DNA of 32,000 nucleotides from assembly GCF_900083515.1 (NCBI RefSeq), contig NZ_LT671858.1, positions 1 to 32,000 of the forward strand, in the 5' to 3' direction. The translations under genes and the position numbers were made by a program. Below the pieces are notes generated by a model, which searched no databases, was not told the origin of the DNA, and worked only from the letters and a program-made list of their open reading frames with translations. The stretch is from Cuniculiplasma divulgatum (GTDB lineage Archaea; Thermoplasmatota; Thermoplasmata; Thermoplasmatales; Thermoplasmataceae). This document shows, piece by piece, positions 3,383 through 30,398 of the stretch (position 1 is its first letter; each line of letters begins with the position of its first letter).

Positions 3383-6300
3383 TCATTTCTTCTTTTCACT
3401 CAGTTTTATCATCTCCATGATCTTACTAAGAGCAAGATCCATCTGTGGATCTTTTCCACTATGCCAATCTTCAGGTTTTATTTCCACTTCATATGTTGGA
3501 TCCGTTCCGTAATTTTCTACGCCAAACCCAACATCCCTGAACTTCATCCCAAATCTTGGCTGAGTCACCTGAGTACCATCTGCCAGCCTTCTTTCAGGGC
3601 TTATTCCAATTACTCCACCCCACGTTCTGGTACCGATTAGTGGCCCTAGGCTTAACAGCTTGAAAGAATGACTGAAAATATCCCCATCAGATCCTGCATT
3701 CTCGTTTGTAAGAGCTATCATTGGCCCCTCAACAGAATAGGATGGATATGGGGAATCCTGCCCTCTCCTTGGATGAGTAAGTGCTATTCTTTCCCGCATT
3801 AGCTTTTCAAGGACAAGTTGTGAAACATTGCCTCCCCCATTGAACCTGACGTCAACTATAAGACCAAATTTCTTGAATTCCCTTGTATAAAGCCTGTAAA
3901 ATTCTGCAAGTCCATCCAGCATCATGTTTGGGATATGAACATAACCTACCTCCCCTCCAGTTTTTTCATGTACCATCTTCCTGTTTTCCTCAACCCAGCT
4001 CCTGTATCTGAGATATCTATCATCTGGAATTGTCTTAACGTAGTTTGAAAATGCCTTCTTGTCCTGAGTTTTGACATCAATTCTGATTATCTCAGATGGT
4101 AGATTAAGTAATATCTCATCGATTGTTTTTCCATCGGGTCCAGGGGACTCTCCATTAATGGACACAATCTGGTCACCCTCCATGAATCCTCCCAGGAGCA
4201 GTGGACTTTTTTCATTCTCATTTGAAAGATCTCCATGATAAATTTTCTTTATGTAGTATTTCTTTCCTCTTAATTCAAAATCAGCCCCAAGATGTCCTAT
4301 GGGTATGGCATCAGAAGAAAGGAAGTCTCCACCTGTTTCATAGGAATGTGACGTTCTGAACTCTCCCTGCATCTCTCTCATTATTTCAGACAGTTCAAAC
4401 CTTGTGGTGATCTTGCTAACAAGGGGTTCATACTTCTCATATATCTGCCGTGCATTCTTTGTTGCAAACTCCTCCTTCCAGAAAAAGCTTGTTGCCAGCA
4501 GCCATGTCTCATTGAACATCTGCTTCCACTCTTCCAGAGGTTCTATCCTTATTTTCAGATCTTTGAGATGGATTTCCTTTTCCTCGTCAAAACCACTCAC
4601 CATTTCCTTCGCAACCTTTGCCTGTAGCTTGAAAACTTTATTTTTTTCCTTTCTGATTAACACAGATTTTTCATCCACTGAAACTCTGAAATCAAGCACC
4701 TTTTCCGCAACAGTCTTAGGCTTCTTTGTTTCAAAGCTGAAGAAAACAAGTTTACCAGCTCTCTGTCTCCCCGATGCGGCATTCTTTAGCAAGCCTTCGG
4801 CCCTGTATGAAAGGTATAGCAAGCCTCCTTTTATGGCCCTAAGAGAATTGAAGTTACCCGAATCTATGGGTAATGAATCGGAAAATGATCCTGCACTCTC
4901 TCTTTCAGATTTTAGTCTCATGGATTCTGGTATCCTGACTGTTGGTGAAAAGTCACCACCATCGATCTTCATATAATATATTCTAGTCATCAGGGGAAAT
5001 GAGTAGTTGAAAGTTGCCCTGTCCTCTACTGGATCAAAAGTCCTGTCAGAAAGATAATAAAGATAAGACCCAGAAGGATCAAAGGATGGTGAATAGTCAT
5101 TAGCCGTTCTTTCTGTTATTTCTTTCTTCTCCATCCTGTCAAGCACCACTGTTTTTACAATGGAACCGTCCCTCTGCCCAAAACCTCCTGTCATATATGG
5201 GAATGTATATGCAATTTTGCCTGAGTCATTTGACCATGCAACATCCCTTATTTTTCCTGCCTCACTTTCATCAATCAGATCACAAGACATATTCTCTATA
5301 TTCACCATATAAAGCTGAAACAGAATATTTGTAACCGCAATCTTCTTTCCATCAGGAGAAGGAAACGTGTTATCTATCAGTCCAATATTTCTTTTAAGCT
5401 GCGTGTGCTTCGAAATGTCTGAAATTTCAGATATGCATAGAAATTCCCCATCCTTATCCTGCCTTACATAGGAGACTCTTTTTCCATCAAGGAACTTCAT
5501 CAGTCTTACCCTTCCATGTGATTGAATTTGCAACTGTGGACTCATTTCTTCAGATGTTATGATGCCTTTACCCCGGAGGACAAATCCATATGTATCATCC
5601 TTTCCGTTCATTGTATATTCTTCCAGGTAGTTTGCGGTATCCGGGAACTTCGATGATGGAAACGTTATCCCTGAGTCCATTCTTACCTCAATTTTCTTTT
5701 CCTCCTTTTTTTCTGGATTTAATGTAAATAATTCGCCTCCCATGGAATACAACAGAACCTCACCATTCGATGAAAGATGCCTTGGATAATAGGTCTTGAA
5801 ATCAGAATGCTTCGTTAATTTTCCACCCTTTACATCAACGGAATATATCTGTCCATTGCCTTCATGATCGGAAACAAAAAACACTTTTTCACCATGGATA
5901 CATGGAGAGGAAACGTGTCCATCCAGGTCTACTATTTTGTTAAATTTTCCATTGAGCTTTCCTGACCAGATAACGCCTCTGGTTCCACCTTTATAACCCT
6001 TCCAGTGTGGCATATCGTATGTATATCTTCCTATTACCACATCATCTCCGTGGAATAATATGTGAGATCCTGGACCAAGATTCAGAGGGTTCAAATTTAG
6101 TGTTTCTGTATCAAGTTCATAGAAGAATGTAAGAGCTCCAAACGGTGACATTGCATCTGTTGAAATAATTGGTACATCTCCCTTCCAGCCTGCAACATCT
6201 GTAAACATCCTTCTTGGTACACTTTTGCCGTTAAGGAAAGTAACCCTCTTCACCATACCTGTTACCCTGTCATACATATACAGGTCTGCCAGTGATCCAT

Positions 6301-6490
6301 CCTTGCCCCTCATCGATCTGAAAATTATCTTATTTCTGTCTGGAGAAAATCTCGCATTATTTATTATACCTTCATTTGACACTACAACCCTTGAGCTTCC
6401 ATCTTTCAAATCTCCGACCCAGATTTTATCATTGGAAACAAAAAGAAATTCGTTACCCATGATATCTGGCCCATGCTTGTAAAATACCAT
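3383..6490 (-). CDS. tri: Tricorn protease (S41-family giant core protease: beta-propellers + PDZ + C-terminal serine peptidase domain)
   Basis: 1035 aa. The N-terminal stretch (INNARFSPD..KIIFRSMRG..ADLYMY..KRVTFLNGKS..RRMFTDVAGW..ISTDAMSPF, PHWKGYKGGTRG, YYPRHL) closely matches what I recall of Thermoplasma acidophilum tricorn. The length also fits. Confidence 0.93.
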   Translation of the reverse strand: MVFYKHGPDIMGNEFLFVSNDKIWVGDLKDGSSRVVVSNEGIINNARFSPDRNKIIFRSMRGKDGSLADLYMYDRVTGMVKRVTFLNGKSVPRRMFTDVAGWKGDVPIISTDAMSPFGALTFFYELDTETLNLNPLNLGPGSHILFHGDDVVIGRYTYDMPHWKGYKGGTRGVIWSGKLNGKFNKIVDLDGHVSSPCIHGEKVFFVSDHEGNGQIYSVDVKGGKLTKHSDFKTYYPRHLSSNGEVLLYSMGGELFTLNPEKKEEKKIEVRMDSGITFPSSKFPDTANYLEEYTMNGKDDTYGFVLRGKGIITSEEMSPQLQIQSHGRVRLMKFLDGKRVSYVRQDKDGEFLCISEISDISKHTQLKRNIGLIDNTFPSPDGKKIAVTNILFQLYMVNIENMSCDLIDESEAGKIRDVAWSNDSGKIAYTFPYMTGGFGQRDGSIVKTVVLDRMEKKEITERTANDYSPSFDPSGSYLYYLSDRTFDPVEDRATFNYSFPLMTRIYYMKIDGGDFSPTVRIPESMRLKSERESAGSFSDSLPIDSGNFNSLRAIKGGLLYLSYRAEGLLKNAASGRQRAGKLVFFSFETKKPKTVAEKVLDFRVSVDEKSVLIRKEKNKVFKLQAKVAKEMVSGFDEEKEIHLKDLKIRIEPLEEWKQMFNETWLLATSFFWKEEFATKNARQIYEKYEPLVSKITTRFELSEIMREMQGEFRTSHSYETGGDFLSSDAIPIGHLGADFELRGKKYYIKKIYHGDLSNENEKSPLLLGGFMEGDQIVSINGESPGPDGKTIDEILLNLPSEIIRIDVKTQDKKAFSNYVKTIPDDRYLRYRSWVEENRKMVHEKTGGEVGYVHIPNMMLDGLAEFYRLYTREFKKFGLIVDVRFNGGGNVSQLVLEKLMRERIALTHPRRGQDSPYPSYSVEGPMIALTNENAGSDGDIFSHSFKLLSLGPLIGTRTWGGVIGISPERRLADGTQVTQPRFGMKFRDVGFGVENYGTDPTYEVEIKPEDWHSGKDPQMDLALSKIMEMIKLSEKKK

Positions 6491-6625: not shown

Positions 6626-9600
6626 TTGATGAAATTGAAAAGCAATAAAAAAATCATATCCATTCTTATGGTTCTTGGTTTCCTCTTTTCAACCATGGCA
6701 GTACTGTCAGGCACGGACCAGGTTTCAGGAATGATTACACATTCATCCGGTTCGCAAAACAAATCAATAGAAAACAACCTCCTCATTTCCTCCAATTTAG
6801 TTCCTTTAAGAAATTATGTAAACACATCAGAAAAATACAGCATAAAAAGCCCAAGAGAAGTTAACACAACAAACAGTAACAAAAGCGAAAGTATTCTCGT
6901 GGGATTCCAGTTCTCAAATCTTTCAGAACTGGTGAGTCTACTTTCGAATATATCTAATAAAAATTCTCCACAATATCACAGGTATATTTCCAGGGCTCAG
7001 TTTGAAAGGAGGTTTGAACCTTCAGATGCAATTTATAATAATTTTATAAAATATCTTCAATCAAATGGTATATATCACATCACAACCTATAAAGGAAGAT
7101 CCATAGTTACATTCACATCCACAACGAAATTAGTTGACAAAATGTTCAGGGTTAAGACAGAAGATTTTGTAAATGGTTCTCAGAATTATTATGCAGCAGT
7201 TGGTGTTCCTAAAGTCCCATCATACTTCAATAACTATGTAACTTCCATAATAGGCCTGTCAAATTATTCGCAGTATGTAATGAGTCTGAATCTTCAGCAT
7301 AAAGTGGCAGTGCAGAAAAATGCATCAGTTAAAAAAACACCGCAGGGAAACATCATTTCACCTGCCTGCTATGATGGTACACAGTATTTTTATGCTCCAG
7401 AATTTCAGTCTGCTTACAATGAAAGAACACTATTCAGAGAATATGGATATCCAACCTCTTCTGTTGAGGCAACCATATTATGGGGTGGTGAATATAATGG
7501 AACAAACACAAGCACTCCTTATGGAACCCTAACACATGACGAAAGAGTAGGTTCATTTGTTCCATCAAACGTATACTGTTACTTCAATGAGACAATGCCA
7601 GCTGGTGAACCACATGCTAAGGTTGTTGGAGTACCTCTTAACGGGGCTGTATCGCCAGGCCCTCTAGCGCAGTATGACAGCACTGGAGCAAATTTTGAAA
7701 ACACTCTGGACATGGAAATGCTTGGAAGCACAGCACCCGGTTCGACCATATATAATGTATATGGAAACAGTTCCTCTTATTACAATATTAATCTGGCTTT
7801 CAATTATATACTGAATCCAGGGAGCAAAAGTTCTAAACTTAACAACGTTTCAGTAATTTCAAATTCGTGGGGAGGATGTAACGTTAACTGCACTAGCTTT
7901 TGTGAAGATGACATGGAGGCTCAGGCAAGGGGAATCACAGTTCTTGCCTCATCAGGCGATGCTGGCGATAATGCCAATAGTACTAAATGGGTAGGGACAA
8001 ATGTGGAATTTCCATCTGTACTTGGATACAATAACTTTGGGGTAGTTGCTGTTGGAGGAACAACTTTCCAGTTGAATGCAACGTCTAACATCGAATCTCA
8101 GAGGAACTGGTACGTCCCAGAAGGGGACAAAAATTTAAGAGGCCCATATGGAACAAGTTCAGGAATTGACACATGTCTCAAGGAACCAACTTGGCAAAAG
8201 GATTCATCAGCGAATCTTGTAATTAAGGGGGAAGGAAGAGGTGTTCCAGACATATCTGCCATAGCCAACGATACACTGGTAACCATCTCAATTTCTGGAT
8301 ATACCTATGATGCAACAAACGCAACATACGGAGGTAGATTCGAATATGCATGGGGAACAAGCATTGCATCACCTGTCACGGCTGGAATACTTTCAGAAAT
8401 TGATTCAGTCTTATATAAAAATAATGATAGTCGTTTAGGTTTTCTGGACTCTTTGCTTTATAAGTTAGGAAATGAACAGTTTGAAAAGGAATCTTCAAAC
8501 AGCACCACAGGATACATTGACACTGGAACATATAATTCTACATTGCCTGCACTTCCATTCTATCCTGTAGAAACTGGAAGGAACCACATATATCACGCAA
8601 GATATGGATACAGCCTTCTTGATGGATGGGGATCAATAAATGCCTATAACCTTACGATATATACTCTGAAAAGGAACTTCAGGAACAATAATTCTGATCT
8701 TTTGGGAATCGATAATAATCTTACCTTAAAGTCTCTGGATGTCAGTTCATATAACTCGACCGGTTCTCTCAATAGATTCTATAATGCCTCAGTTCAACAA
8801 AATTTATTTCTTGCCAATGAAATGGGACAGCCACTTTACTGGATTCAAAATGTAATTTACTTAAACAAGACAGTTTCAGGAGGATATGTGGTCAATTACA
8901 CCGGATGGGTTAACTATCCATTTTATGGAATTTATCAAACATCAACCGTATATCACTACACGTTCCCTTCAGGAAGAATAATCTTACTGCCACATAGTTT
9001 TAATATTTCTACACAGTTAAACGTCAACGGAAACCCCATGGACAGTTATCTCAAATTTTTTGTTAACAGGCATGAAATAAAAATGAATGTTACAGGGGCT
9101 GCGTTTATAATAGGGGCAAGAAACTATTCATATTATTATGAAAACAATCTAATTTATAATGGACCATATCCCAACAACAAATTTCAGGGTGGATTAGATC
9201 CACAATTTGGTCTTGTTGGTGGCCCTTCTGCATATCTTGGAATATTCAGGAATTCAACAACCGCTTATGTGAAAAGTTACATTGAAAATGAAGAAGGGCA
9301 TTGGATAGTTCCTAGAACAAGATCATTCAATGAATCAATTGATCAGACAGGTGAAAATGCAACAAACCTGATCTACTCCCCGAATGGAACAGGATGTTAC
9401 AGTATTGGCATAAAACCAGGAAGTAAGGAGCAGGGACTGGTTTTCTATACTACGACAGGAAGAGAAAAATTCAAGCTAGACTTCCTTGAGACAAATCTTA
9501 CAGACGGAACAGTTTGGAACCTGACATTTGAAGGGAAGAAATATTCATCAAATCTGAACAACATTACTGTATATTCTGTCAATGGAACCTATACATACGA

Positions 9601-10012
9601 AGCTGAAAACACAACACTGTTTTACAACCAAAATTTTCATAAAGTTATTTCAGTAAGTGGCAAAAATATAACAGTACAGATCATTTACATAAGGTATTCA
9701 TACATTCACGGAACTGTATCACCTTCAGATACAACTCTGTCATTTAACGGAAAGAATGTGCAAATATCCGGAAATGGTCAGTTCAATATAACAACCACTT
9801 ACGGAAGTTTTGTTCTAAAGGCATCATCGCCAGGCTTTAAAACAAAATACATGAACTTTACAGTTCAGAAGGGGAAATCACTTAAACTTAATATTTCCCT
9901 TTCAGAAATTAAACAACATGGTCCGAATTATATTTACCTTTACTTAACACTGATCCTGCTTGTCATCATAACAGTAATTGCAGTCGCTATAAATTTAAAA
10001 AGGAGGAGGTAG
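6626..10012 (+). CDS. Secreted, C-terminally membrane-anchored multidomain protease: sedolisin/kumamolisin-type S53 peptidase (with pro-domain) fused to a thermopsin-like (A5) region, GT.W repeat, CarboxypepD_reg-like domain and TM anchor
   Basis: Signal peptide (ISILMVLGFLFSTMAVLS). The probable true start is ATG 6629, because 6626 is TTG. Pro-kumamolisin-like segment SPQYHRYISRAQFERRFEPS. S53 catalytic motifs ENTLDMEM (E358/D362, nt 7697-7711), NSWGG, SSGDAGD, WGTSIASP (Ser579, nt 8360-8362). Thermopsin-like ASVQQNLFL..YWIQNV (nt 8837-8854) and FGLVGGPSA. FLETNLTDGTVWNLTF..NGTYTYEAE repeat. C-terminal TM plus KRRR. About 30 N-x-S/T sequons. Confidence 0.8.
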   Translation: MMKLKSNKKIISILMVLGFLFSTMAVLSGTDQVSGMITHSSGSQNKSIENNLLISSNLVPLRNYVNTSEKYSIKSPREVNTTNSNKSESILVGFQFSNLSELVSLLSNISNKNSPQYHRYISRAQFERRFEPSDAIYNNFIKYLQSNGIYHITTYKGRSIVTFTSTTKLVDKMFRVKTEDFVNGSQNYYAAVGVPKVPSYFNNYVTSIIGLSNYSQYVMSLNLQHKVAVQKNASVKKTPQGNIISPACYDGTQYFYAPEFQSAYNERTLFREYGYPTSSVEATILWGGEYNGTNTSTPYGTLTHDERVGSFVPSNVYCYFNETMPAGEPHAKVVGVPLNGAVSPGPLAQYDSTGANFENTLDMEMLGSTAPGSTIYNVYGNSSSYYNINLAFNYILNPGSKSSKLNNVSVISNSWGGCNVNCTSFCEDDMEAQARGITVLASSGDAGDNANSTKWVGTNVEFPSVLGYNNFGVVAVGGTTFQLNATSNIESQRNWYVPEGDKNLRGPYGTSSGIDTCLKEPTWQKDSSANLVIKGEGRGVPDISAIANDTLVTISISGYTYDATNATYGGRFEYAWGTSIASPVTAGILSEIDSVLYKNNDSRLGFLDSLLYKLGNEQFEKESSNSTTGYIDTGTYNSTLPALPFYPVETGRNHIYHARYGYSLLDGWGSINAYNLTIYTLKRNFRNNNSDLLGIDNNLTLKSLDVSSYNSTGSLNRFYNASVQQNLFLANEMGQPLYWIQNVIYLNKTVSGGYVVNYTGWVNYPFYGIYQTSTVYHYTFPSGRIILLPHSFNISTQLNVNGNPMDSYLKFFVNRHEIKMNVTGAAFIIGARNYSYYYENNLIYNGPYPNNKFQGGLDPQFGLVGGPSAYLGIFRNSTTAYVKSYIENEEGHWIVPRTRSFNESIDQTGENATNLIYSPNGTGCYSIGIKPGSKEQGLVFYTTTGREKFKLDFLETNLTDGTVWNLTFEGKKYSSNLNNITVYSVNGTYTYEAENTTLFYNQNFHKVISVSGKNITVQIIYIRYSYIHGTVSPSDTTLSFNGKNVQISGNGQFNITTTYGSFVLKASSPGFKTKYMNFTVQKGKSLKLNISLSEIKQHGPNYIYLYLTLILLVIITVIAVAINLKRRR

Positions 10013-14503: not shown

Positions 14504-15034
14504 TTGGTAAGCGCTATAAAAAAAGATGTGAGGATAGGTTATGTCTATCTTCATCAGGATGATCCAGCAAAATCAACCATGAAGAAATTACAGAAATTCA
14601 AAATGGCCGAACAGATAAACAGAGACAGGATGGGTGGATATGTTGTATTGAGGTATGACGCAGATAGGACATTATTGCCAGATGACAGATCGGCCGTAGA
14701 AAGAAAAGGCATTTGCATCATAGAAGGTTCATGGAATCTTGGAGACCTTCTTGGCTCCTACAGAAAAGGAATTGAGAGAAAACTCCCTGTTCTGATGGCA
14801 GGCAATCCTGTTAATTTTGGAAAGTTCAATAAACTATCATCAGTCGAGGCGGTAGTAGGGGCTCTTTTTATAACGGGGCACATAGATCAGGCAAAAGTTA
14901 TGATAGGAAAATTCACATGGGGGCACACATTTATTGAACTGAACATGGAACTGTTTAAGTCCTATTCAGCGTGCCAGACCATGGAGGACCTTGAAAATGT
15001 TTATCTTGAATTTGACATAGATCCTAATATTTGA
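14504..15034 (+). CDS. tsr3: 16S rRNA aminocarboxypropyltransferase Tsr3 (DUF367)
   Basis: 176 aa. VYLHQDDPAKSTMKKL and LMAGNPVNFGKFNKLSSVEAVVGALFITGH match the Tsr3 family pattern. TTG start at 14504 (GTG 14528 is an alternative). TATA-like attattata at 14472-14480. Confidence 0.85.
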   Translation: MVSAIKKDVRIGYVYLHQDDPAKSTMKKLQKFKMAEQINRDRMGGYVVLRYDADRTLLPDDRSAVERKGICIIEGSWNLGDLLGSYRKGIERKLPVLMAGNPVNFGKFNKLSSVEAVVGALFITGHIDQAKVMIGKFTWGHTFIELNMELFKSYSACQTMEDLENVYLEFDIDPNI

Positions 15035-16415
15035 TCCATTTACTATTATCCAGTTTCCAGTTACCGTTTGTATATTCCGATATTATTGAATATATGCCTT
15101 CCCTATACTCCACAGGTATTTGTTCCATTATTTCAGTCTCTCCCGGAAGCAAATGGATTCCCGTAATTTGTGTATTCATGTCGTAGTCTCCGCTTTGAAG
15201 ACCGTCTGTTAAAAATTCCAGTTCATCGGGATCTAGTTTCATTTTTTCCTCCTTTACCATATCAAGGAGATTGGTCTTCAAAGGATAGTGTATTTCCTCA
15301 GGGTCACCGTGAGCGTATTCAATAAATAATCTAACACCCAGACATTTAGTGCATTTTCCACATGGATAAACATCACCATTCTGATACCTGCATGAGTGGC
15401 ATGATCTCTGTAGTAAGTAAAGATCATGATACCTGTTTACCAGTATATCTTCAACCACAGAGCCATATATATCGTAAAGGGCTGACCACAGTGTTATCCC
15501 GAAACCTTTTTCCTGTGTATATTTTGAAAATCTCCTCTGAAAATCAGGACTCTGATCGTACACGCCATAATAATGCTTTATTCCCCTGTATGGAGGCTCT
15601 TCTGCTGGATCGTCCATTTCATTTCCCATTATAATATCCTTTATCCCCTTTAACCTGAGAGAGGGAAATGTTGCGAACAGATAAACTGGAAATAGGAAAA
15701 GCTGTACAGGATAGTCATCAGCCCAGGAAAATGATACAACAGGATCAAGAATCGGCATCCTGTGATTCATGAAATTATAAAATCTATCAATGTTTGACCA
15801 GACCCTCGCACTCTCAGTGACCCTGCTGAGATAATCATGTGAATGCTTGGCTGCTTTCCAGTGACCTCCCGATTCATTGAAGAAATACGGCAGCGCATTT
15901 CCAGTAAGCTCCCTCATAATTCCATATGAGAGAAGGCTTTCCTTCCCTCCAGATAGCATTATTGCAGATCTGCCATTAGGGCTTCCCGAATAATTATCAA
16001 CATATTCAGACCTAAATGTGAGTTTTGTATTTCCATTTGCATTCTCCTGTGTAACTTCTTCATCTGCAGGTAAAAATTCGTTCCTGAAGAAAGGGTATCT
16101 TATCCTGCAGAGACGGTTTATAAAAACTTCAACATTATTGATTTTAACCATTTCCTCTATCATTTTTCTGTCCGACTCAGAAGTTGGGAAATCAAATATA
16201 ATTTCCCCGGTAAATAATGCATAGTTTATGACAGCTGTAGCGCCCATTAGACCTGCGAGATTTTCATTGAGTTCAACTTCATGATCATACTTATATTCAA
16301 GAGTGAATTTTTCTCTGTTATCCAGGGATATATTGATCTTTGCAAAATTTTTAGAAAAAGAATGCACACTTATCTCAAGTGTTTCAAAGCACCTGATCCT
16401 GTCGAGGAAAGGCAA
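15024..16415 (-). CDS. QueC-like PP-loop ATP pyrophosphatase with unrecognised N- and C-terminal extensions (function unknown)
   Basis: 463 aa. PP-loop SGGKES (res 155-160, nt 15936-15953). Cys knuckle SCHSC-x9-CGKCTKC (res 338-358, nt 15342-15404) resembles the QueC zinc site. TTG start 2 nt after the upstream stop. Confidence 0.6.
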   Translation of the reverse strand: MPFLDRIRCFETLEISVHSFSKNFAKINISLDNREKFTLEYKYDHEVELNENLAGLMGATAVINYALFTGEIIFDFPTSESDRKMIEEMVKINNVEVFINRLCRIRYPFFRNEFLPADEEVTQENANGNTKLTFRSEYVDNYSGSPNGRSAIMLSGGKESLLSYGIMRELTGNALPYFFNESGGHWKAAKHSHDYLSRVTESARVWSNIDRFYNFMNHRMPILDPVVSFSWADDYPVQLFLFPVYLFATFPSLRLKGIKDIIMGNEMDDPAEEPPYRGIKHYYGVYDQSPDFQRRFSKYTQEKGFGITLWSALYDIYGSVVEDILVNRYHDLYLLQRSCHSCRYQNGDVYPCGKCTKCLGVRLFIEYAHGDPEEIHYPLKTNLLDMVKEEKMKLDPDELEFLTDGLQSGDYDMNTQITGIHLLPGETEIMEQIPVEYREGIYSIISEYTNGNWKLDNSKWIKY

Positions 16416-16417
16416 GA

Positions 16418-17452
16418 CTAAAACCCGGAAACTATGATTTCTGCCATTCTTTTTGAATCGAACAGAGGATCAAAAGCAGGGAGGCCATACCTGCTTTCCA
16501 GGTCTTTCTTAGCATCACTAATCTCCTTTTCAGTCAGTCCTTCTCTGTTAATTGCTATGCCCATAACCTTTTTGTCTGATAACTCTTCAAGTATCCTGAT
16601 GAATTTTTCAACAGGTGGGATTTTAATTCCTGGAAAGCCATCATAATCAATTCTCGTCGGGGCGTGCTGTAATATTATGCCATCTGGCTTCCCTGCTGCT
16701 ATTATTTCAAAACTTCCTGGGTATGCAGGGTGCAGAACTGAGCCCTGTCCCTCAAGGAACATGAAATCTGGTGATTCCTTCTCCCATGCTTCAACTATGG
16801 CACTTTCTATCCCACCGGCAACGAAATCGTTTATCATTGAATCTATTACCACTGTATAGGGAAATCCCTGCATCCATGCTGTCTGGCCTGTACCTATCAT
16901 GACCGAACTCTTACCTAGCTTTTTCACCTCTTCGTTCAGATAAACTGCAGTAGTTCTCTTTCCTATGGCACTATCAGTACCCAGTACTGCAATCTTTTTA
17001 GATTTTACATCCCAGATCTTGCCTGTAAAAAAGTCTCTTCTCATCATAAACATTTTCCTAACATCAACTATCTCGGAACCAGATTGTTCACTGAGTTTTT
17101 TGAATTCTGGGTCATCTGAAATGAACTGGTGAAGTCCACTAACAACAGTCATCTTCTCCCTTATTGCCCTTGATACAAACGGTCTGAAATATTCAGGGAG
17201 AAAGCCTCCATCCGTTGCAACACCAACTATCAGGGTATCGGCACCCAGATCTATGGCTTCTCCCATTGTTGAAATGATCTTTATATCTGGTCTTGCCTTA
17301 GGTACAATCTCCTGTATGCTGGCTCCTGAATGGGTACTATCTATGACACCCAATATATCATAACGCTTTGAAAATCTGCACAGGCCATTTGCAGTTTTGC
17401 CATATGTAGACCCAAGGAAACCCTCGGCAAGTATAACCGCTTTATCCATCAA
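16418..17452 (-). CDS. DUF1611-family protein (DgcN-like; Rossmann-like N-domain + P-loop-like C-domain)
   Basis: N-terminus AVILAEGFLGSTYGKTANGLCRF and the glycine-rich loop VLGTDSAIGKRTTAVYL..IGTGQTAWMQG match the DUF1611 pattern. The probable start, ATG 17449, shares its A with the upstream TGA (TGATG). Confidence 0.75.
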   Translation of the reverse strand: MMDKAVILAEGFLGSTYGKTANGLCRFSKRYDILGVIDSTHSGASIQEIVPKARPDIKIISTMGEAIDLGADTLIVGVATDGGFLPEYFRPFVSRAIREKMTVVSGLHQFISDDPEFKKLSEQSGSEIVDVRKMFMMRRDFFTGKIWDVKSKKIAVLGTDSAIGKRTTAVYLNEEVKKLGKSSVMIGTGQTAWMQGFPYTVVIDSMINDFVAGGIESAIVEAWEKESPDFMFLEGQGSVLHPAYPGSFEIIAAGKPDGIILQHAPTRIDYDGFPGIKIPPVEKFIRILEELSDKKVMGIAINREGLTEKEISDAKKDLESRYGLPAFDPLFDSKRMAEIIVSGF

Positions 17453-18402
17453 TTTCCCCTTCCAGTCAATACGGCAACTACCTCTCCACTGACATTTCTG
17501 TTATTTAAGTTCTTATGGGCTGCTGCCAGTGCTGATGCAGAGGCTGGAAGAACCTGAATAGATTGTTGATTCTCTATCATCCTTGAAAACTTCACCATTT
17601 CCTGATCGTTAACTCCTATTGCAACGCCTTTACTTTCATAAATTGCGTTAAGTGCTTTTTGGCCATCCATGGCACGGAATGAAACCAGTGGTTCGTTGGT
17701 TTCTGTCTCAATTATTGTTGATGGTTCCAGTTCCTGAATCTTCCTGAATCCGTGTTTCCATGAATACACGATAGGATTACCAAGAGATGTAGAAGAAGCA
17801 ATGAATTTTGGGATATTACTGATCATTCCCCTCAGGTACAGTTTTTTGAAACCGCTGAATATCCCGGCAAGTGTTGTTCCATTACCCACTGGCGCCGCCA
17901 AATAGGCTGGTGAATGTCCTAGCTGCTGTACTATCTCATTTGCAATACTCTCGTAACCAAGTATATCAACTATTGAATTTACCGAGCCAGGACTGCAGTC
18001 ATACCAGTTCTCATCCCTCGATTTGTCCTTGATATATTCAACAAGATCCTCATATTTCATGTTTTTCTGTATGATCTTTGCTCCGTTTCCATAAATTTCA
18101 TCACTTCTTGCGTTAGTGTAGAAGGATGGAATTGCAACAACGGATTTGATTTTATATGCAGAAGCAAAATAAGATACAGATGCCCCGTAATTACCACATG
18201 TTGCAACTGCGATGGTATCATAACCTAATTCTATAGCCCTCCTAACATGAAGGCTTGAGATCCTGTCCTTTTGGGTTCCTGTAATGCTGGCACCTTCAAA
18301 CTTAAAAAAAATCTTATTCATTTTCAGGAACCTCTCTATATTTCTGGCCCTGAAAAGAGGTGTCAATCCAGGAGGCTTTTCTTCCTCTGTAATCTGTTCC
18401 AT
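17449..18402 (-). CDS. Fold-type-II PLP-dependent enzyme (threonine synthase / Trp-synthase-beta superfamily), specificity unknown
   Basis: 317 aa. Schiff-base lysine motif SITGTQKDR (K45), glycine loop PVGNGTTLAG, and the size typical of short PALP enzymes. Confidence 0.75.
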   Translation of the reverse strand: MEQITEEEKPPGLTPLFRARNIERFLKMNKIFFKFEGASITGTQKDRISSLHVRRAIELGYDTIAVATCGNYGASVSYFASAYKIKSVVAIPSFYTNARSDEIYGNGAKIIQKNMKYEDLVEYIKDKSRDENWYDCSPGSVNSIVDILGYESIANEIVQQLGHSPAYLAAPVGNGTTLAGIFSGFKKLYLRGMISNIPKFIASSTSLGNPIVYSWKHGFRKIQELEPSTIIETETNEPLVSFRAMDGQKALNAIYESKGVAIGVNDQEMVKFSRMIENQQSIQVLPASASALAAAHKNLNNRNVSGEVVAVLTGRGN

Positions 18403-18448
18403 TATTTAATACACCGACCACTCGGTCATGTAATGATGAGTACATTCT

Positions 18449-18456
18449 ATTTAAAT
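18449..18456 (-). promoter_or_regulatory. TATA-like box upstream of the PLP/DUF1611/PP-loop operon
   Basis: The palindromic atttaaat is centred 23.5 nt upstream of a mini-ORF ATG at 18429, not of the main ATG at 18402. Confidence 0.3.
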
Positions 18457-18649
18457 ATATCTTATAAAAATTTCAATATATCTATAATCAGCAAATTGGC
18501 TGTTTTCCAAGAGTTTTAAATATCTATTCATATAAATGTATAAATAATTATATTGTATATTTTATTTTTAAAATTCTTAAATATTTTTGTACTATTCAGG
18601 TCTAAAAGATATTTCTAATAAACCAAAAAAATGAGAGGATTGGAGATGT

Positions 18650-19405
18650 TTATATTGTTATGACTTCAAGACCTAATTGATCTGCAACTTCCCTTATCAT
18701 AGTCAAGCCTGCAGACTTTATCCCTTTCTTATCAACCAGGAAACCCTTACATTTATCAGTTTTCTCAACTGCCATCAGGATTTCATCCTTTCCGATCTCA
18801 TCCATTCTGAACTTGGAAATAATATGGCCAACATTGACATTCTCCTTCAGAACATATGAGGAAAATTTTGGAGCGTAATGCCCTCCACCGGCACCAACAT
18901 AGTTCGGATAATTCTTCGGTGTGGCATCTCTCACTCCCAGAAACAGAGTCCTAAGTGCATCGACGTCTTTCCAATTTTCTGGCTCAGTGCCTATCTCTGC
19001 AAATATCAGTCTATTATTGGACTCTGGACCATGATGAGTTGCCTCAAAGGTCACCTGATACTTTTCTCCACTGTAAACATCGCACATTTTTCTAAGTATT
19101 GCAGTCTGTATTTCGGGTGCACATCTTGCAATGTTCCTTTCTCTTCCACCAATATCATTAGTTGAGAAGTTCCCTACAGGATGTACTGTAATGGAGTTCA
19201 CCTTTGCCTTGGAAGAATGTCTGCTAAGAAAAATAATAACCCTGTCTTCATTATCTATAAGCTTTTCTGGAAATTCTAACAGTGGTAGTCTGCCTTCAGT
19301 TAGTATATATTTTCCAAGTCCGGGACCATTAGAAATGAAGTAGTTATAAATACTGAAACTGGCATCATCGCTTTTCGTTGCAATAAACACAGGATCGTAT
19401 TCCAT
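18650..19405 (-). CDS. dtdA: D-aminoacyl-tRNA deacylase, archaeal type (DTD2)
   Basis: 251 aa. FEATHHGP motif characteristic of the archaeal tRNA_deacylase family. SD-like GGTGGAG 7-13 nt upstream. The ATG overlaps the upstream stop by 1 nt (TAATG). Confidence 0.8.
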   Translation of the reverse strand: MEYDPVFIATKSDDASFSIYNYFISNGPGLGKYILTEGRLPLLEFPEKLIDNEDRVIIFLSRHSSKAKVNSITVHPVGNFSTNDIGGRERNIARCAPEIQTAILRKMCDVYSGEKYQVTFEATHHGPESNNRLIFAEIGTEPENWKDVDALRTLFLGVRDATPKNYPNYVGAGGGHYAPKFSSYVLKENVNVGHIISKFRMDEIGKDEILMAVEKTDKCKGFLVDKKGIKSAGLTMIREVADQLGLEVITI

Positions 19406-19836
19406 TATCTCTCCACCAGATCGTGATACAAATTCTCGCTTCTTATTCTGAGTCTTTCAATGTTGCTTGCGTAATTTTCAAGATAATCCTTTCCCTCTTC
19501 ATATTTTCTTATGGTTCCAAGGACAATGTCATGCTCCCTTCCAAGTGTGCTTGAAATGAAGAGCAATACACTCTGAATGCTCTCAGGATCTGGTGCTTCT
19601 ACTTTCCTGTGGTTATATATCCTGATATCTGGTTCCCTTTCGAGTTTCTCAAGAGTTTTCTTCTTTTTAAGTGCCTCATTCATGAGGTTCAAATTGGCTA
19701 TAAAATAATCAACAATCATCGAGATATTATTGTGAAATGTCTCATCCCTAATATCCTTAAGCTGCTCCTGAATTTTTAAGTTACTTTTTGTAATTTCATC
19801 AATTAACTCATCTTCCTTACCCATGCTCACTCCCAT
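19405..19836 (-). CDS. Hypothetical charged, predicted helical/coiled-coil protein
   Basis: 143-aa ORF rich in K/E/L heptad-like segments. Translationally coupled to dtdA. The alternative ATG at 19824 gives MGKEDE. Confidence 0.55.
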   Translation of the reverse strand: MGVSMGKEDELIDEITKSNLKIQEQLKDIRDETFHNNISMIVDYFIANLNLMNEALKKKKTLEKLEREPDIRIYNHRKVEAPDPESIQSVLLFISSTLGREHDIVLGTIRKYEEGKDYLENYASNIERLRIRSENLYHDLVER

Positions 19837-22284: not shown

Positions 22285-22788
22285 ATGTATCTCACACCTG
22301 AAAGAGCAGTAAAAATAGGAATGATACTGGTAGTTGCATCAATTTTAATACTGGGTTATTCTGCCTTTGGATTTTACACGTCATCCTCAGCCACAAAGGA
22401 TACAGTTATTGCTGGTGGTTCCGAAAAATCTATGGATATAAACGTAACGTCAGGATTACTTCTGACATATACGATCACAGCAAATTCTACTGGGAACTTC
22501 AGGGCATGGTTCAGTGAACCATCAGGCAATACTGTTGTGGAATCAAACTTCACAGGATCGGGCATTTCAAAATCCATAGTGGCACCTGTTTCAGGACAGT
22601 GGGTTTTTCACGTGGAAAATCTGGAAAAAAATAGCTCTGCCCTGAAAATACATCTCGGACAGATTTCATATTACCTTGAAGCGGGATTATACTTTGGCAT
22701 TACTGTTCTTATTTTGGGCATAGTTTTCATTCTCTATTTCTTCAATGTACAGAAGAGAGAAACCATAAGAAAGAGTAAGCGGTTTTAA
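22285..22788 (+). CDS. Hypothetical bitopic surface protein (N-terminal TM/signal + C-terminal TM anchor)
   Basis: 167 aa. Hydrophobic segments at both ends, a central beta-rich region with N-x-S/T sequons, and a basic C-terminal tail. Confidence 0.55.
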   Translation: MYLTPERAVKIGMILVVASILILGYSAFGFYTSSSATKDTVIAGGSEKSMDINVTSGLLLTYTITANSTGNFRAWFSEPSGNTVVESNFTGSGISKSIVAPVSGQWVFHVENLEKNSSALKIHLGQISYYLEAGLYFGITVLILGIVFILYFFNVQKRETIRKSKRF

Positions 22789-22838: not shown

Positions 22839-23828
22839 CTAACCTATATATATGTGGAAATGGGTGTGGAATATAAATCCTATTGTGTAGGTGATTGCCG
22901 CGGCTAGCAGTGACAAAATGGCTGCCCTGCTTGAGGATTTCAATATAGAGATGTTCAGTGCTATTGCTATAATGGAATTGCTTACTGCCTGAACTGCAGC
23001 CACAAGTATAACGGCAATGATCAGTGAAAGTATGCCAAGAGGAAAGAGGAAAGGAATTATTGGAAAAGCAGCTCCTGCTATATAGGAAAGACCGGTTGTT
23101 CCCGCTGAAACCTTTGTACGGTTCTCTTCATTTTCAATTTCAGTCTTCATCTTATGAGTGCTAGTGTTTGTAATGAGACTTTCCCTTTTAATATTCCTTA
23201 TCCTGTACTCAATTTCGGAGGATTTTGAAAGATATGCTCCAAGGGTCATGCTTATGGTTCCACCGACTCCTATAACAAGTCCACTCATCGCAATTATGAA
23301 ATTGTTACTTATAATTGCAGTTAATCCTGCGATTGCCGCCAGAACCTCAACGAGTCCATCACTCATACCATATATGAAAGCCTGTATTCTATCAAGATAG
23401 GCTTCCCTGTTAATCCCCATCTGTTCAAAGACGTTTTCATGACCTATCTCATCATTTATAATAGATTTTAATGCATTTACTTCATCGGTATCCTTCATAT
23501 TCTTTAAAAAATCCCTGTATTTTCTAATACTTTCAACCTCTCCTCTTTCCAGAAGATTGACAGTCAGGTTATTACCCAAGATTCTGGTAAGGAATAGGAG
23601 AAAGAAAATCTTCACACCTCTAGGCTTGATCTCATTTTTTTCAGAGCCTAACTTTATGAGTCTTTTCATCCAGAACTCAGAATGGGACTCCTCCATTTCA
23701 GCGAGATAATCAAGTTTCTCTTTTAAAACTTTATTTCGGGATCTTTTGGCAAGTTTTCTATAGAACTCTCTGTCTGTGATCTCATCTCTATAGAATTCTG
23801 AAACCAGTTTCTCTTCTTCTCCCATCAT
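22839..23828 (-). CDS. VIT1/CCC1-family iron transporter with N-terminal ferritin-like (erythrin) domain
   Basis: 329 aa. Two ExxH di-iron motifs (EMEESH, NDEIGHE) in the N-terminal helical domain. VIT1 signature FIYGMSDGLVEVLAAIAGL followed by TM helices. Confidence 0.8.
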   Translation of the reverse strand: MMGEEEKLVSEFYRDEITDREFYRKLAKRSRNKVLKEKLDYLAEMEESHSEFWMKRLIKLGSEKNEIKPRGVKIFFLLFLTRILGNNLTVNLLERGEVESIRKYRDFLKNMKDTDEVNALKSIINDEIGHENVFEQMGINREAYLDRIQAFIYGMSDGLVEVLAAIAGLTAIISNNFIIAMSGLVIGVGGTISMTLGAYLSKSSEIEYRIRNIKRESLITNTSTHKMKTEIENEENRTKVSAGTTGLSYIAGAAFPIIPFLFPLGILSLIIAVILVAAVQAVSNSIIAIALNISILKSSSRAAILSLLAAAITYTIGFIFHTHFHIYIG

Positions 23829-28007: not shown

Positions 28008-29029
28008 TCTTTCTTTTTCCAGTAATATACAGGCAAAAGAGCAAGGGCAGCAATTGCAGTTATTCCACCATAAATATCATTTACATTCAGCCCTGGTGGA
28101 TTAGTTCCATCATAGATTTTTGTAGGTCGATTAGGAATGGATATGGCGCTCCCATGTGGAACATGGTCTCTAATTTCTCCGGTCGTCCTGTCATAACACA
28201 CAATCTGTCCGTTCCCACCATTTCCGCTGCTACTTTCACCATTTAGACTGTAAACACCCTGGCCACCTGATACATTACACTTATTTTCAAGGGATATATT
28301 ATCAAAATAGGAGAGAAATATTACTCCTCCTCCGCCTCCACCTATAAGACCTGTACCACTTCCGGTTCCACTCCCATTTGCACCTGATGCTATTATTCTT
28401 CCCACATATATGCTATGTGCACATATTGCTATTCCATAGGCCCCAGCGGAATATGGCAACCCGTTGAGGCTCTGTGCTCCAGCTCCTGAAAGGAAATTAC
28501 TGAAATTGTTTCTGTACCAGTATGAGAAAAGGTTTTCTGTAGTGCTATTTATCTTTAAATAGGGGGTCGCTCCATTCCCTCCGGGTACAGTATTACTGCT
28601 TGAACCCTTACCGCCAGGGGCCAGGGTTGAGAATCCTGAAGAAATACCTGCATTTTCAGACTGGCTCTGTGCCCCTGCTCCTGAACCTCCGTAGGAAAGT
28701 GGATATGAGTCCATTGGGGTCATTCCGGTAATTATAACGCCATAGTTACAAAAGCTTCCGTTTGCAAAAATGTTCCATCCATCTGAAGTAACAACGACAC
28801 CCGGTTCTATGGTAATGTTCGCCCCTGTTAGATTGGATGTTAGTGTAATATTAGATTTGATTATTTTATTTTCATTTGAAGTGTTTACTGAGCTATGGGC
28901 AAATTTACCTTCATGACTTAGCATATTGAAATTATGGGTATTAACTGAAGAGAAATTATTGCCAGACATAAAAATTAGAAGAATTGCAAGTAACACAGTT
29001 GCAATTAAACCTATATATTTCACTTTCAA
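28004..29029 (-). CDS. Glycine-rich, sequon-rich surface protein with N-terminal signal/TM and C-terminal TM anchor
   Basis: 341 aa. Recurrent Gly clusters (GGSGAGAQS, GGKGSSS, GGNGATP, GANGSGTGSGTGLIGGGGGG, GGQG, GNGGNG) alternate with hydrophobic beta-like stretches. C-terminal ITAIAALALLPVYYWKKKD. TTG 29029 or GTG 29023 start. Confidence 0.6.
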   Translation of the reverse strand: MKVKYIGLIATVLLAILLIFMSGNNFSSVNTHNFNMLSHEGKFAHSSVNTSNENKIIKSNITLTSNLTGANITIEPGVVVTSDGWNIFANGSFCNYGVIITGMTPMDSYPLSYGGSGAGAQSQSENAGISSGFSTLAPGGKGSSSNTVPGGNGATPYLKINSTTENLFSYWYRNNFSNFLSGAGAQSLNGLPYSAGAYGIAICAHSIYVGRIIASGANGSGTGSGTGLIGGGGGGVIFLSYFDNISLENKCNVSGGQGVYSLNGESSSGNGGNGQIVCYDRTTGEIRDHVPHGSAISIPNRPTKIYDGTNPPGLNVNDIYGGITAIAALALLPVYYWKKKD

Positions 29030-29879: not shown

Positions 29880-30398
29880 CTACTTTTTTCTCAGGAGTGT
29901 TCTCACTACGGCAAGTGTCGCTACGGCACCTGTTGCAATTATGGCTGCATATTTTGGCGAATCATAAAGGAGATGTTCCAGAGGTTTTTTCCCAGGATCA
30001 TACCTGTCCAGATGAACTTCATATCTATCCCTGTACTCAACGGCGTGGACACACTGGGTTGTGCCTGGAACAGATGCTCTCCAGTCTGCTATCTGACCCT
30101 TAATCTCACCAAGAGATCTCCTGAATAGCCCAGAATCCCTGGGCTTAGGAACATTGCTGATCCCATCATTCTTTGGCACAACCACAACATCTCCCTGTAT
30201 TGCCTCAGTTATCTTTATCTGCCAGAATGATCTTGAATTCTGATCCATATAATTCAGAAATGCCAAATCTTTATAATAACATTGGGTGATTCTATTTACC
30301 GGCATGCGGATAAGGCCAATTAAGGTATTTTGACGGTTAATATGTGAAGATTGTAACATTATTTTAATCATTGATACAACAATTTTAATAACAGCCAA
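29880..30398 (-). CDS. Hypothetical protein with C-terminal TM helix (start uncertain)
   Basis: The ORF maximum uses TTG 30398, only 14 nt from the pyrG ATG and overlapping the pyrG TATA. ATG 30305 (MPVNR, 142 aa) or ATG 30371 are more plausible starts. C-terminal [16 protein letters not shown] plus RKK. Confidence 0.45.
30381..30391 (+). promoter_or_regulatory. TATA-like box for pyrG
   Basis: aattttaataa is centred about 26 nt upstream of ATG 30412. Confidence 0.4.

Follow-up and report, generated by a model that had tools for sequence, protein, structure and literature searches.

In the window, the 32,000-nucleotide stretch of Cuniculiplasma divulgatum DNA analysed here, three closely spaced genes form a unit. 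The third of them, which follows genes for a ThrC-like PLP enzyme and a DUF1611 protein, encodes a 463-amino-acid protein that, judged by its predicted structure, is a member of the PP-loop superfamily with a QueC-fold core. It is about an even call that this protein acts as a zinc-stabilised PP-loop ATP pyrophosphatase in an amino-acid-derived small-molecule pathway, together with the PLP enzyme and the DUF1611 protein.

The gene and its family

The reading frame begins with TTG and ends with a stop codon at 15024-15026 of the minus strand. The start agrees with the N termini of homologues, of which 741 were retrieved at E ≤ 1e-3, and the best 120 of these are near full-length, covering 89-100% of the query; the gene is judged real from these homologues and their coverage. 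The family occurs in 289 species-representative genomes, and relatives are encoded by at least 381 among the first 600 metagenome pattern matches listed. Its hosts are wall-less archaea (Thermoplasmata), other archaea, and some bacteria, including sediment bacteria. Public records label its members "metal-binding protein" or "hypothetical," and the family has no name.

The full-length protein shows no significant Pfam family, the sole match being to DUF6395 (E = 0.36) on the Cys cluster, and it gave no match to NCBIfam at E ≤ 1, to PADLOC at E ≤ 10, or to PF06508 (QueC) at E ≤ 1. Among PDB sequences, the protein by itself and the profiles A1, A3, A4, and A5 retrieved only PP-loop-level or chance matches. 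In agreement with the first-pass annotation, which had proposed a new architecture, no characterised family in Pfam, NCBIfam, PADLOC, or the PDB matches the protein over its full length.

Predicted fold and core domain

The protein and its parts are located as follows.
15024..16415, minus strand: QueC-fold PP-loop ATP pyrophosphatase-like protein, 463 amino acids (open reading frame, 741 homologues, AF2 model, Foldseek)
15981..16415, minus strand: family-specific N-terminal domain, residues 1-145 (domain model, conservation)
15321..15980, minus strand: predicted QueC-fold Rossmann-like catalytic core, residues 146-365 (Foldseek, hhalign)
15936..15953, minus strand: PP-loop SGGKES, residues 155-160, ATP pyrophosphate-binding motif (translation, conservation)
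15549..15560, minus strand: YDQS motif, residues 286-289 (translation, conservation, hhalign columns)
15342..15401, minus strand: Cys knuckle, residues 339-358, with predicted Zn ligands C339, C352, C355, and C358 (translation, conservation)
15027..15320, minus strand: family-specific C-terminal domain, residues 366-463 (secondary structure, conserved columns)

The AF2 model (pLDDT 92.6, pTM 0.91) presents a Rossmann-like α/β/α core, the fold of the superfamily. When compared with the PDB by Foldseek, its top matches were QatC (2.9e-6), Cap9 (2e-4), and QueC (1.4e-3), with a probability of 1.00 to QueC structures 3BL5 and 2PG3, and below the QueC family came TtuA, NcsA, LarE, MnmA, GMP synthetase, and asparagine synthetase. 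Structural matches in BFVD were mostly QueC. The full-length Foldseek alignment with QatC had a TM score of 0.38 to 0.40. Alignment by hhalign of a profile of 80 family sequences with one of 13 QueC sequences joined the two cores over a stretch of 190 columns that runs from the PP-loop through the Cys knuckle (E = 1e-4, probability 58%). The search that enriched the QueC profile gave almost only enterobacterial sequences, and the resulting alignment is modest but usable; with a two-sequence QueC profile, the PP-loop alone aligned. The model, Foldseek, and hhalign thus back the initial reading of a QueC-like PP-loop core with a QueC-type Cys4 knuckle. The segment WADDYPVQLFLFPVYLFATFP (residues 231-251), described at first as unusually aromatic, turns out not to be special, as the profile alignment places it on the "FVPGRN + core helix" element of QueC, and in the model it is simply one of the buried helices that make up the Rossmann core (helix 242-252).

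Conserved motifs of the core

Retranslation puts the SGGKES motif exactly at residues 155-160, as first reported, and in the model it comes directly after strand 149-153. Its distance from the N terminus, which had been considered distinctive, is common in the superfamily. Of 160 homologous open reading frames, 156 carry the pattern S-G-G-K-[DE]-S, and the PP-loop is invariant in alignments A1 and A4. The spacing C-x12/13-C-x2-C-x2-C is found in all 160. This conservation of the PP-loop and the cysteines speaks against a degenerate domain, the contrary outcome envisaged for the first reading.

The Cys cluster SCHSCRYQNGDVYPCGKCTKC spans residues 338-358, and in the hhalign alignment C339, C352, C355, and C358 fall on the Zn cysteines of QueC. 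The proposal of a QueC-like zinc site holds for this position and for the QueC-type Cys4 set but not for the spacing, which had been read as C-x9 through C342, whereas the conserved spacing is C-x12/13 from C339. C342 is lineage specific, being replaced by Ser in homologue P0088 and missing from the non-Thermoplasmata branch. An Fe-S sulfurtransferase of the LarE/TtuA type was considered and rejected: the cysteines form a QueC-type knuckle that ends the core, and there is no active-site triad.

The motif [YF][DE]QS is kept across the family and in distant relatives, and by hhalign D287 aligns with the substrate-recognising aspartate of Bacillus subtilis QueC (D131) and of Cap9 (D117). In these two proteins, 7-carboxy-7-deazaguanine is recognised by the pairs Y129/D131 and Y115/D117, respectively (PMC13279940). 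D287 may be functionally equivalent to this substrate-reading aspartate. The substrate-stacking tyrosine of QueC is absent at the aligned position, which is occupied by I279 or V285, depending on the alignment; an aromatic residue, Y/F286, adjoins D287 in the family. The other invariant motifs are NESGxHW and GNExD.

Flanking domains

The isolated N-terminal domain was modelled with a pLDDT of 92.5 and consists of three strands, a helix, a strand, a long helix, and a strand, with N64, F68, N93, E96, N100, and R106 as conserved residues. Foldseek with this model retrieved only RNase-H domains (E ~2e-3, TM ~0.4, rmsd ~10 Å) and did not retrieve QatC. The resemblance to RNase H is weak and is taken as one of shared topology rather than homology. 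None of the acidic residues of the domain is invariant and E96 is the only conserved one (≥90%), so that an RNase-H-type acidic catalytic set is lacking. The C-terminal domain is modelled as helices followed by a terminal β-hairpin, and its conserved residues are D395, E398, H421, E426, and W460.

Residues 1-146 and 362-463, each queried alone, matched nothing in Pfam or among PDB sequences, and with N-domain Foldseek matches that are weak only, both extensions are still free of assignable motifs, as originally stated. Neither the full-length protein nor its extensions showed a THUMP, PUA, OB, or other RNA-binding domain when scanned with Pfam. This result, and the metabolic nature of the gene partners that are linked across lineages, leave the suggestion that the extensions serve RNA recognition unsupported.

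Operon and gene neighbourhood

Upstream of the gene, the unit comprises the following features.
16418..17452, minus strand: DUF1611 partner with a Rossmann-like N domain and a P-loop C domain (Pfam PF17396 and PF07755)
17449..18402, minus strand: opening gene of the operon, coding for a short PLP enzyme of fold type II that resembles ThrC (Pfam PALP; NCBIfam PRK06381, 428 bits)
18403..18649, minus strand: AT-rich intergenic region 5' of the three-gene unit (sequence read directly)

The PLP and DUF1611 genes overlap by 4 nt, and a gap of 2 nt separates the DUF1611 stop from the start of the third gene. The AT-rich region is a probable promoter region; no RNA element turned up when the window was compared with Rfam. 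For the PLP enzyme, the name "threonine synthase" is probably wrong. The DUF1611 protein scores 162 bits with the NCBIfam DgcN model, under its cut-off of 480, which suggests a distant relative of DgcN (D-glutamate N-acetyltransferase). DgcN is the one characterised DUF1611 protein; it transfers an acetyl group to the nitrogen of D-glutamate, and the resulting N-acetyl-D-glutamate is racemised by DgcA (PMC12363236, PMC11747546). The NCBIfam scan also gave a faint resemblance of DUF1611 to the P-loop of Mur ligases. The N terminus of the DUF1611 protein leads straight into a predicted strand and has no free tail. A search of the literature on DUF1611 and COG3367 found nothing relevant.

The arrangement is conserved. 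Among 81 genome loci, in which only selected window genes were looked for, DUF1611 lies directly upstream of the family member in 79 and a PALP gene is present in 71; the corresponding counts for 80 bacterial-type metagenome loci are 63 and 47. The same order of PALP, DUF1611, and the PP-loop gene is seen in Thermoplasma volcanium, in a Bathyarchaeota-labelled MAG, and in six further divergent lineages, and the PLP enzyme of the bacterial operon falls in the same NCBIfam family as that of the window (438 bits). A single sequence (P0135), from one contig of 6.3 kb, fuses DUF1611 with the PP-loop protein; this may be an artefact, and a check of the 80 metagenome loci gave no second case.

In hosts other than Thermoplasmata, the operon is extended by either a GNAT gene or an MR_MLE gene together with a fused creatininase/MftE-like hydrolase. 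The MR_MLE protein, encoded downstream in 55 of the 80 metagenome loci, is closest to L-Ala-D/L-Glu epimerase and DgcA and scores 173 to 178 with the DgcA (N-acetyl-D-Glu racemase) model, against a cut-off of 400. Of 79 loci, 66 have the creatininase-family domain as a fusion and 7 as a separate open reading frame; the domain is closest to the peptidyl-dipeptidase MftE (161 bits versus a cut-off of 172). A RimI-like GNAT is encoded directly downstream in four lineages, on the same strand in three, where it overlaps the stop of the PP-loop gene by 7 to 17 nt or starts at it, and convergently in the fourth (locus L086). A Ddl-like ATP-grasp protein is present in 5 loci. Within 6 kb in the window and in Thermoplasmata-type loci, there is no MR_MLE, creatininase-domain, or GNAT gene; the amino-acid-derivative theme in these loci comes from the PLP enzyme and DUF1611 only. 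DtdA adjoins the operon in 62 of the 81 genome loci, across an intergenic gap of its own, and the linkage of Tsr3, DtdA, and ValRS is confined to Thermoplasmatales and lost elsewhere.

Proposed function and alternatives

The conserved linkage to genes of amino acid metabolism argues for a small-molecule pathway not described so far, and not for RNA modification. Both QueC and Cap9 activate a carboxylate by adenylation and then transfer it to an amine or NH3 (PMC13279940), and by analogy with QueC, the chemistry expected is an AMP-forming activation of a carboxylate. In the first step, ATP would bind at the PP-loop and the carboxylate of an amino-acid-derived small molecule would be adenylated with release of PPi. 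Candidate substrates are dipeptide-like compounds and N-acyl amino acids that the PLP enzyme and DUF1611 would produce or process. In the second step, ammonia or an amine would attack the acyl-adenylate to give a carboxamide or an amide, which is what Cap9 does and what QueC does in its first half-reaction; alternatively, the adenylate would labilise the α-proton and the residue would be stereo-inverted, as proposed for MurL. Amide formation is a real possibility for this step, although short of probable, MurL-type epimerisation is doubtful, and the remainder falls to other chemistry. By analogy with QatC, the extensions may hold a partner protein or close the active site.

MurL, a protein of about 447 amino acids, catalyses the epimerisation of a C-terminal Glu in a reaction that needs ATP and Mg and yields AMP; it had no recognised domains, and its gene lies beside that of a ligase (PMC5808125). 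A MurL-type one-way ATP-driven epimerase, in which DUF1611 would attach or acylate an amino acid and the PP-loop protein would adenylate the α-carboxylate and invert the residue, so that a D-amino-acid derivative would be formed or eliminated, is an unlikely reading of the operon that nevertheless draws on several lines of evidence. The bacterial family member P0134 matches the NCBIfam MurL model (NF041275) in the region bounded by YDQS and the Cys knuckle (E = 4.9e-6), but with 25 bits against a cut-off of 700 and as a single distant member, while the window protein has no match to this model and none of 30 representatives, all hypothetical or unnamed, carries the name MurL. The size of MurL, its need for ATP and Mg, its AMP product, its lack of recognised domains, and its ligase neighbour are in keeping with this reading, as is the faint Mur-ligase P-loop resemblance of DUF1611. 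A D-amino-acid flavour is also given by the DgcN-like partner, the MR_MLE protein similar to DgcA and L-Ala-D/L-Glu epimerase, the Ddl-like protein in 5 loci, and DtdA in 62 of 81. However, DtdA is linked within Thermoplasmatales alone and behind its own gap, and the bacterial operons already hold an MR_MLE epimerase, next to which a second epimerase would look redundant. Equally speculative is the broader idea that the family and MurL are two branches of a hidden QueC-fold, AMP-forming clade that activates the α-carboxylate of amino acids or peptides, and that PALP, DUF1611, and the PP-loop protein form an undescribed ATP-driven pathway making or stereo-inverting a modified, possibly D-, amino acid or dipeptide metabolite.

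That the protein conjugates a carboxylate, either 7-carboxy-7-deazaguanine or another acid, to the N terminus of a partner in the manner of Cap9 and QatC, with DUF1611 as the partner and defence as a possible role, is very unlikely. QatC is the best structural match and has the same layout, the pairing with one partner is tight and includes one apparent fusion, and the deazaguanine-edge aspartate of Cap9 and QueC is kept as D287. Nevertheless, no PADLOC model matches any of the three operon proteins, genes for QatA, QatB, QatD, and a CD-NTase are absent, the N-domain model does not bring up QatC, and the DUF1611 N terminus lacks the free tail. The neighbours are housekeeping or metabolic genes, and the synteny is fixed across 289 species-representative genomes, unlike a defence island; with no defence neighbours and a fixed core-genome synteny, the defence-island reading was rejected.

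Many PP-loop enzymes, including TilS, ThiI, MnmA, and TtuA, modify tRNA, and some such enzymes appear low in the Foldseek list. A tRNA or rRNA modification enzyme with extensions as RNA-recognition modules would also suit the Thermoplasmatales neighbours Tsr3, DtdA, and ValRS and the weak RNase-H-like topology of the N-domain. It is similarly improbable, as the PLP enzyme and DUF1611 are the genes linked across lineages, no RNA-binding domain of the THUMP, PUA, OB, or other type was found, and the N-domain matches, at a TM of ~0.4 and an rmsd of ~10 Å, come with no RNase-H-type acidic set. The tRNA-modification reading drawn from Tsr3, DtdA, and ValRS was set aside since their linkage occurs only within Thermoplasmatales.

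Archaea need preQ0 for archaeosine, and canonical QueC occurs in archaea (PMC13329287). A divergent preQ0 synthase, to which this need, the QueC fold, the PP-loop, and the Zn-type knuckle would lend themselves, is the most improbable of these readings, given that canonical archaeal QueC exists and that the protein has no PF06508 match, about 240 extra residues, no tyrosine at the aligned substrate position, and linkage to PLP, DUF1611, MR_MLE, and creatininase-like genes instead of queD, queE, or folE, none of which turns up in the annotated loci or among the neighbour clusters that recur in the 80 metagenome loci.

The amino-acid-derived small-molecule pathway proposed above would extend the QueC scaffold beyond nucleobase synthesis and protein deazaguanylation. 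The family is large, intact, and unnamed, and one solved member would annotate three gene families together. The operon may reveal ATP-dependent modification of amino acids or peptides in organisms where little secondary metabolism is known, and if the link to MurL were true, the "domain-less" MurL would gain a fold and a mechanism, explaining an epimerase that is an antibiotic target.

Comparison with known systems

The operon shares with DgcN-DgcA and NSAR-type logic, that is, to acylate, racemise, and deacylate, the presence of a DUF1611 protein, to which bacterial loci add a DgcA-like MR_MLE protein and an amidohydrolase domain. It differs in that the scores of DUF1611 (162 versus 480) and MR_MLE (173 to 178 versus 400) are far under the cut-offs, and the DgcN-DgcA pathway has no PP-loop or PLP enzyme (PMC11747546).

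By the description of MurL, the two proteins are of similar size and each has an adjacent partner gene, which is amide-forming in MurL. In contrast to MurL, there is no adjacent gene for MurD2 or another Mur ligase, and among the hosts are wall-less archaea, in which peptidoglycan is not made.

The likeness to QueC comprises the Rossmann-like PP-loop core with an SGGxDS-type loop ending the first strand, the four-Cys knuckle that closes the core, and the aspartate at the substrate-edge position. Unlike in QueC, the spacing in the knuckle is x12/13 instead of x8, the archaeal branch has E for D in the PP-loop, an insertion of about 20 residues precedes YDQS, about 145 N-terminal and about 100 C-terminal residues are added, and the gene belongs to a PLP-DUF1611 operon instead of a queD/queE context.

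The best structural matches are QatC and Cap9 (PDB 9Y02 and 9NTO), which belong to the QatABCD and type IV CBASS defence systems. QatC has an N-extension of about 145 amino acids, formed by a four-stranded parallel sheet and three helices, a core at residues 145-377 with a PP-loop at S156-S161, an in-core loop insertion, and Cys4, and a C-extension serving to bind its dedicated partner protein (PMC13279940). The overall plan is thus alike, whereas the N-domain of the window protein has a run of three strands ahead of its first helix, its partners are metabolic rather than QatA, QatB, or QatD, PADLOC gives no match, and its synteny is that of the core genome and not of a defence island. The new architecture claimed at first therefore narrows to a new family with new extension folds, because QatC provides a published precedent for placing a QueC core and its Zn knuckle between an N-extension and a C-extension (PMC13279940).

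Gene, family and conserved motifs

The 463-aa protein (the target) is a member of a widespread but uncharacterised family of PP-loop enzymes that have a QueC fold and flanking domains of their own. Its TTG start codon lies 2 nt past the stop of the upstream gene, and its N terminus is in register with those of its homologues in the alignment. The 3' end of the gene overlaps the convergent Tsr3 gene (14504-15034, plus strand) by 11 nt (15024-15034). Retranslation from the coordinates placed the PP-loop, the Cys cluster and the aromatic stretch exactly where the first-pass annotation had them, in the same ORF.

Features of the target
15024-16415, minus strand: target ORF, 463 aa, TTG start (ORF listing)
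Residues 155-160: SGGKES PP-loop
Residues 180-186: NESGxHW family motif
Residues 231-251: aromatic stretch
Residues 264-269: GNExDD family motif
Residues 286-289: [YF]DQS family motif
Residues 338-358: Cys cluster

A word-indexed search retrieved 741 homologues (E ≤ 1e-3), the best 120 of which are 435 to 494 aa long, share 40 to 96% identity over 89 to 100% of the query, come from Thermoplasma, Picrophilus, Cuniculiplasma and many Thermoplasmata MAGs, and are named "metal-binding protein" or "hypothetical protein." Relatives are encoded in 289 stretches of a species-representative genome collection; the best 80 of these are nearly all from Thermoplasmata, Aciduliprofundum among them, except for one MAG labelled Bathyarchaeota and one labelled Methanobacteriota. 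An exhaustive profile search gave 438 cluster representatives (E ≤ 0.001), including bacterial-type proteins of about 790 aa and shorter relatives that have only residues 144-390 in common with the target and that, where a source is named, come from Woesearchaeota or Nanoarchaeota (DPANN). These core-only proteins of about 450 aa (P0208, P0238, P0266 and similar) carry an S[FG]GK[DE]S loop and an N-terminal region different from that of the target; one, P0221, is solitary, with neither PALP (the Pfam name for the PLP enzyme of the operon) nor DUF1611 as a neighbor.

Among 46 aligned sequences (39 to 86% identity), S155, G157, K158, E159 and S160 are invariant, as are C339, C352, C355 and C358, whereas C342 is kept in only at least 90%. 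The PP-loop and the cysteines are also retained in 18 far more distant members, and the 160 target ORFs of the fetched loci present S-G-G-K-[DE]-S in 156 cases and C-x12/13-C-x2-C-x2-C in all. The ATP-binding PP-loop is intact and conserved, within a QueC-fold core bearing a Cys4 knuckle. The conserved spacing and the variable C342 point to C339, C352, C355 and C358 as the likely metal ligands, in place of the C342-based set first proposed. Four paralogues (P0156, P0161, P0162 and P0200; L085 245-2725) have degenerate PP-loops (VDGTRES, VSGSAES, VESGTND), and their ATP site is possibly catalytically dead; P0156 and P0161, the two that were scanned, still carry a creatininase-like domain fusion.

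Predicted structure

Sequence searches of the target gave a single insignificant Pfam match on the Cys cluster (DUF6395, E 0.36), no NCBIfam match at E ≤ 1, and only chance or PP-loop-level matches in the PDB, with either the protein or family profiles as query; the C-terminal 100 residues matched nothing in Pfam or the PDB. The AlphaFold2 model (46-sequence alignment; pLDDT 92.6, pTM 0.91) retrieved from the PDB with Foldseek, in order, QatC (9Y02_B, E 2.9e-6), Cap9 (9NTO_B, E 2e-4) and QueC (3BL5 and 2PG3, E ~1.5e-3), followed by the other PP-loop enzymes TtuA, MJ0690, NcsA, LarE and MnmA. In BFVD, 10 of the 14 matches at E ≤ 1e-3 are named QueC. When a profile of the family core (80 sequences) was compared with one built from 13 QueC sequences, the two aligned across 190 columns (E 1e-4, probability 58%). 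In this alignment the PP-loop, D287 and each of the four cysteines meet their QueC equivalents, and the aromatic segment matches the FVPGRN-plus-core-helix element of QueC. This ranking and alignment identify the core (approximately residues 146-365) as a predicted QueC-fold domain, visible by structure and hardly by sequence.

The N-domain (residues 1-145), modelled alone (pLDDT 92.5), matched only retroviral RNase H domains, weakly (E ~2e-3, TM ~0.4, rmsd ~10 Å), and did not retrieve QatC. None of its acidic residues is invariant and E96 alone is conserved (at least 90%), so it lacks an RNase-H-type acidic catalytic set.

A conserved three-gene operon

Genes upstream of the target
16418-17452, minus strand: DUF1611 gene, directly before the target, 2-nt gap
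17449-18402, minus strand: short ThrC-like PLP enzyme gene (NCBIfam PRK06381, 428 bits)

The PLP enzyme and DUF1611 genes overlap by 4 nt, and a 247-nt AT-rich gap precedes the three-gene unit (the triad). DUF1611 lies immediately upstream of the target in 79 of 81 genome loci, the other two having nearly no sequence available there, and 71 of the 81 have the PLP gene. The triad also occurs in T. volcanium, in the Bathyarchaeota-labelled MAG and in every divergent lineage with sufficient flanking DNA. Linkage of the target to both partners is obligatory, and this conserved operon is named by no database. Tsr3, DtdA and ValRS are frequent neighbors within Thermoplasmatales only.

Outside Thermoplasmata a fourth function joins the operon, either a RimI-like GNAT (directly downstream in L079, L174, L086 and the P0142 contig, close by in L172) or an MR_MLE enzyme nearest to L-Ala-D/L-Glu epimerase and DgcA, the N-acetyl-D-glutamate racemase (L082, L089/L090, L171). 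The 80 bacterial-type metagenome loci contain DUF1611 (63), PALP (47), a downstream MR_MLE (55) and a creatininase-family domain, fused to the target in 66 and a separate downstream ORF in 7, that most resembles the peptidyl-dipeptidase MftE, scoring 161 bits where the cut-off is 172. In Thermoplasmata-type loci, as in the window, all three additions are missing from the surrounding 6 kb. The accessory genes are those of amino-acid or peptide chemistry. A DUF1611::target fusion was found in one sequence only (P0135). Five metagenome loci (L093 6168-8534 and four others) have a 788-aa D-Ala-D-Ala-ligase-like double ATP-grasp protein near the bacterial version, and five have a NIF3-like gene downstream of MR_MLE.

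The PLP genes of the window and of a bacterial operon (L082 3470-4663) both exceed the cut-off of the NCBIfam equivalog PRK06381, "threonine synthase," with 428 and 438 bits respectively. This model appears to capture the enzyme specific to the operon, so the name is probably an over-annotation.

Other features of the window

3383-6490, minus strand, and 6626-10012, plus strand: tricorn protease gene adjoining that of a protein of 1128 aa that carries a pro-kumamolisin activation domain (sedolisin-type protease)
22839-23828, minus strand: rubrerythrin-VIT1 fusion (ferritin-like and iron-transporter domains)
19405-19836 (minus), 22285-22788 (plus), 28004-29029 (minus), 29880-30398 (minus): four ORFs of 143 to 341 aa without a Pfam match

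The protease pair is consistent with a peptide-degrading acidophile. The closest relatives retain the 143-aa ORF upstream of DtdA (nine loci, 34 to 90% identity). Rfam gave no family at gathering score across positions 1-32000.

Proposed function and comparison with known systems

QueC first adenylates a carboxylate, then hands it over to ammonia (PMC13329287, PMC13279940); for Cap9 the acceptor is an amine on a protein (PMC13279940). The D-glutamate N-acetyltransferase DgcN is the sole characterised DUF1611 protein; the N-acetyl-D-glutamate that it makes is racemised by DgcA (PMC12363236, PMC11747546). The target would adenylate the carboxylate of a small molecule that derives from an amino acid and is provided by its two partners, and our tentative preference is that the adenylate becomes an amide.

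A rather unlikely alternative is stereo-inversion as in MurL, which epimerises a C-terminal glutamate with ATP, releases AMP and has no recognised domain (PMC5808125). The idea arises from one weak match of the MurL HMM (model positions 252-340) to the bacterial member P0134 (residues 313-398; E 4.9e-6, 25 bits); being described without known domains, MurL may itself be a hidden QueC-fold PP-loop enzyme. Confirmation of this connection, or of a new amino-acid or peptide pathway, would give the family greater significance.

Compared with amide formation, a protein-conjugating or defence role like those of Cap9 and QatC is improbable, given no PADLOC match, core-genome synteny and metabolic partners. 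RNA modification, in line with the RNA recognition first suggested for the extensions, is equally improbable, as no RNA-binding domain was found and the translation-related neighbors are lineage restricted. That the target is a divergent true QueC is less probable still: PF06508 gave no match, queD, queE and folE are absent from the annotated loci and from the recurrent neighbor clusters of the 80 metagenome loci, and the QueC substrate Tyr aligns with I279 or V285, depending on the alignment, with an aromatic residue (Y/F286) beside D287. An Fe-S sulfurtransferase was rejected because the cysteines form a knuckle rather than an active-site triad. The first-pass observation stands, and its interpretation in part.

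In QatC, the QueC core spans 145-377, contains a loop insertion and is preceded by an N-terminal extension; the PP-loop serines are S156 and S161, the Zn cysteines are C334, C354, C357 and C360, and a helical extension at the C terminus is where its partner QatB binds (PMC13279940). The target shares this outline of extension, QueC core and extension, so the layout of the "new architecture" proposed for it already has a published counterpart (PMC13279940), whereas its sequence and N-domain fold have none. By analogy with QatC, the extensions of the target probably bind a partner or cap the active site.
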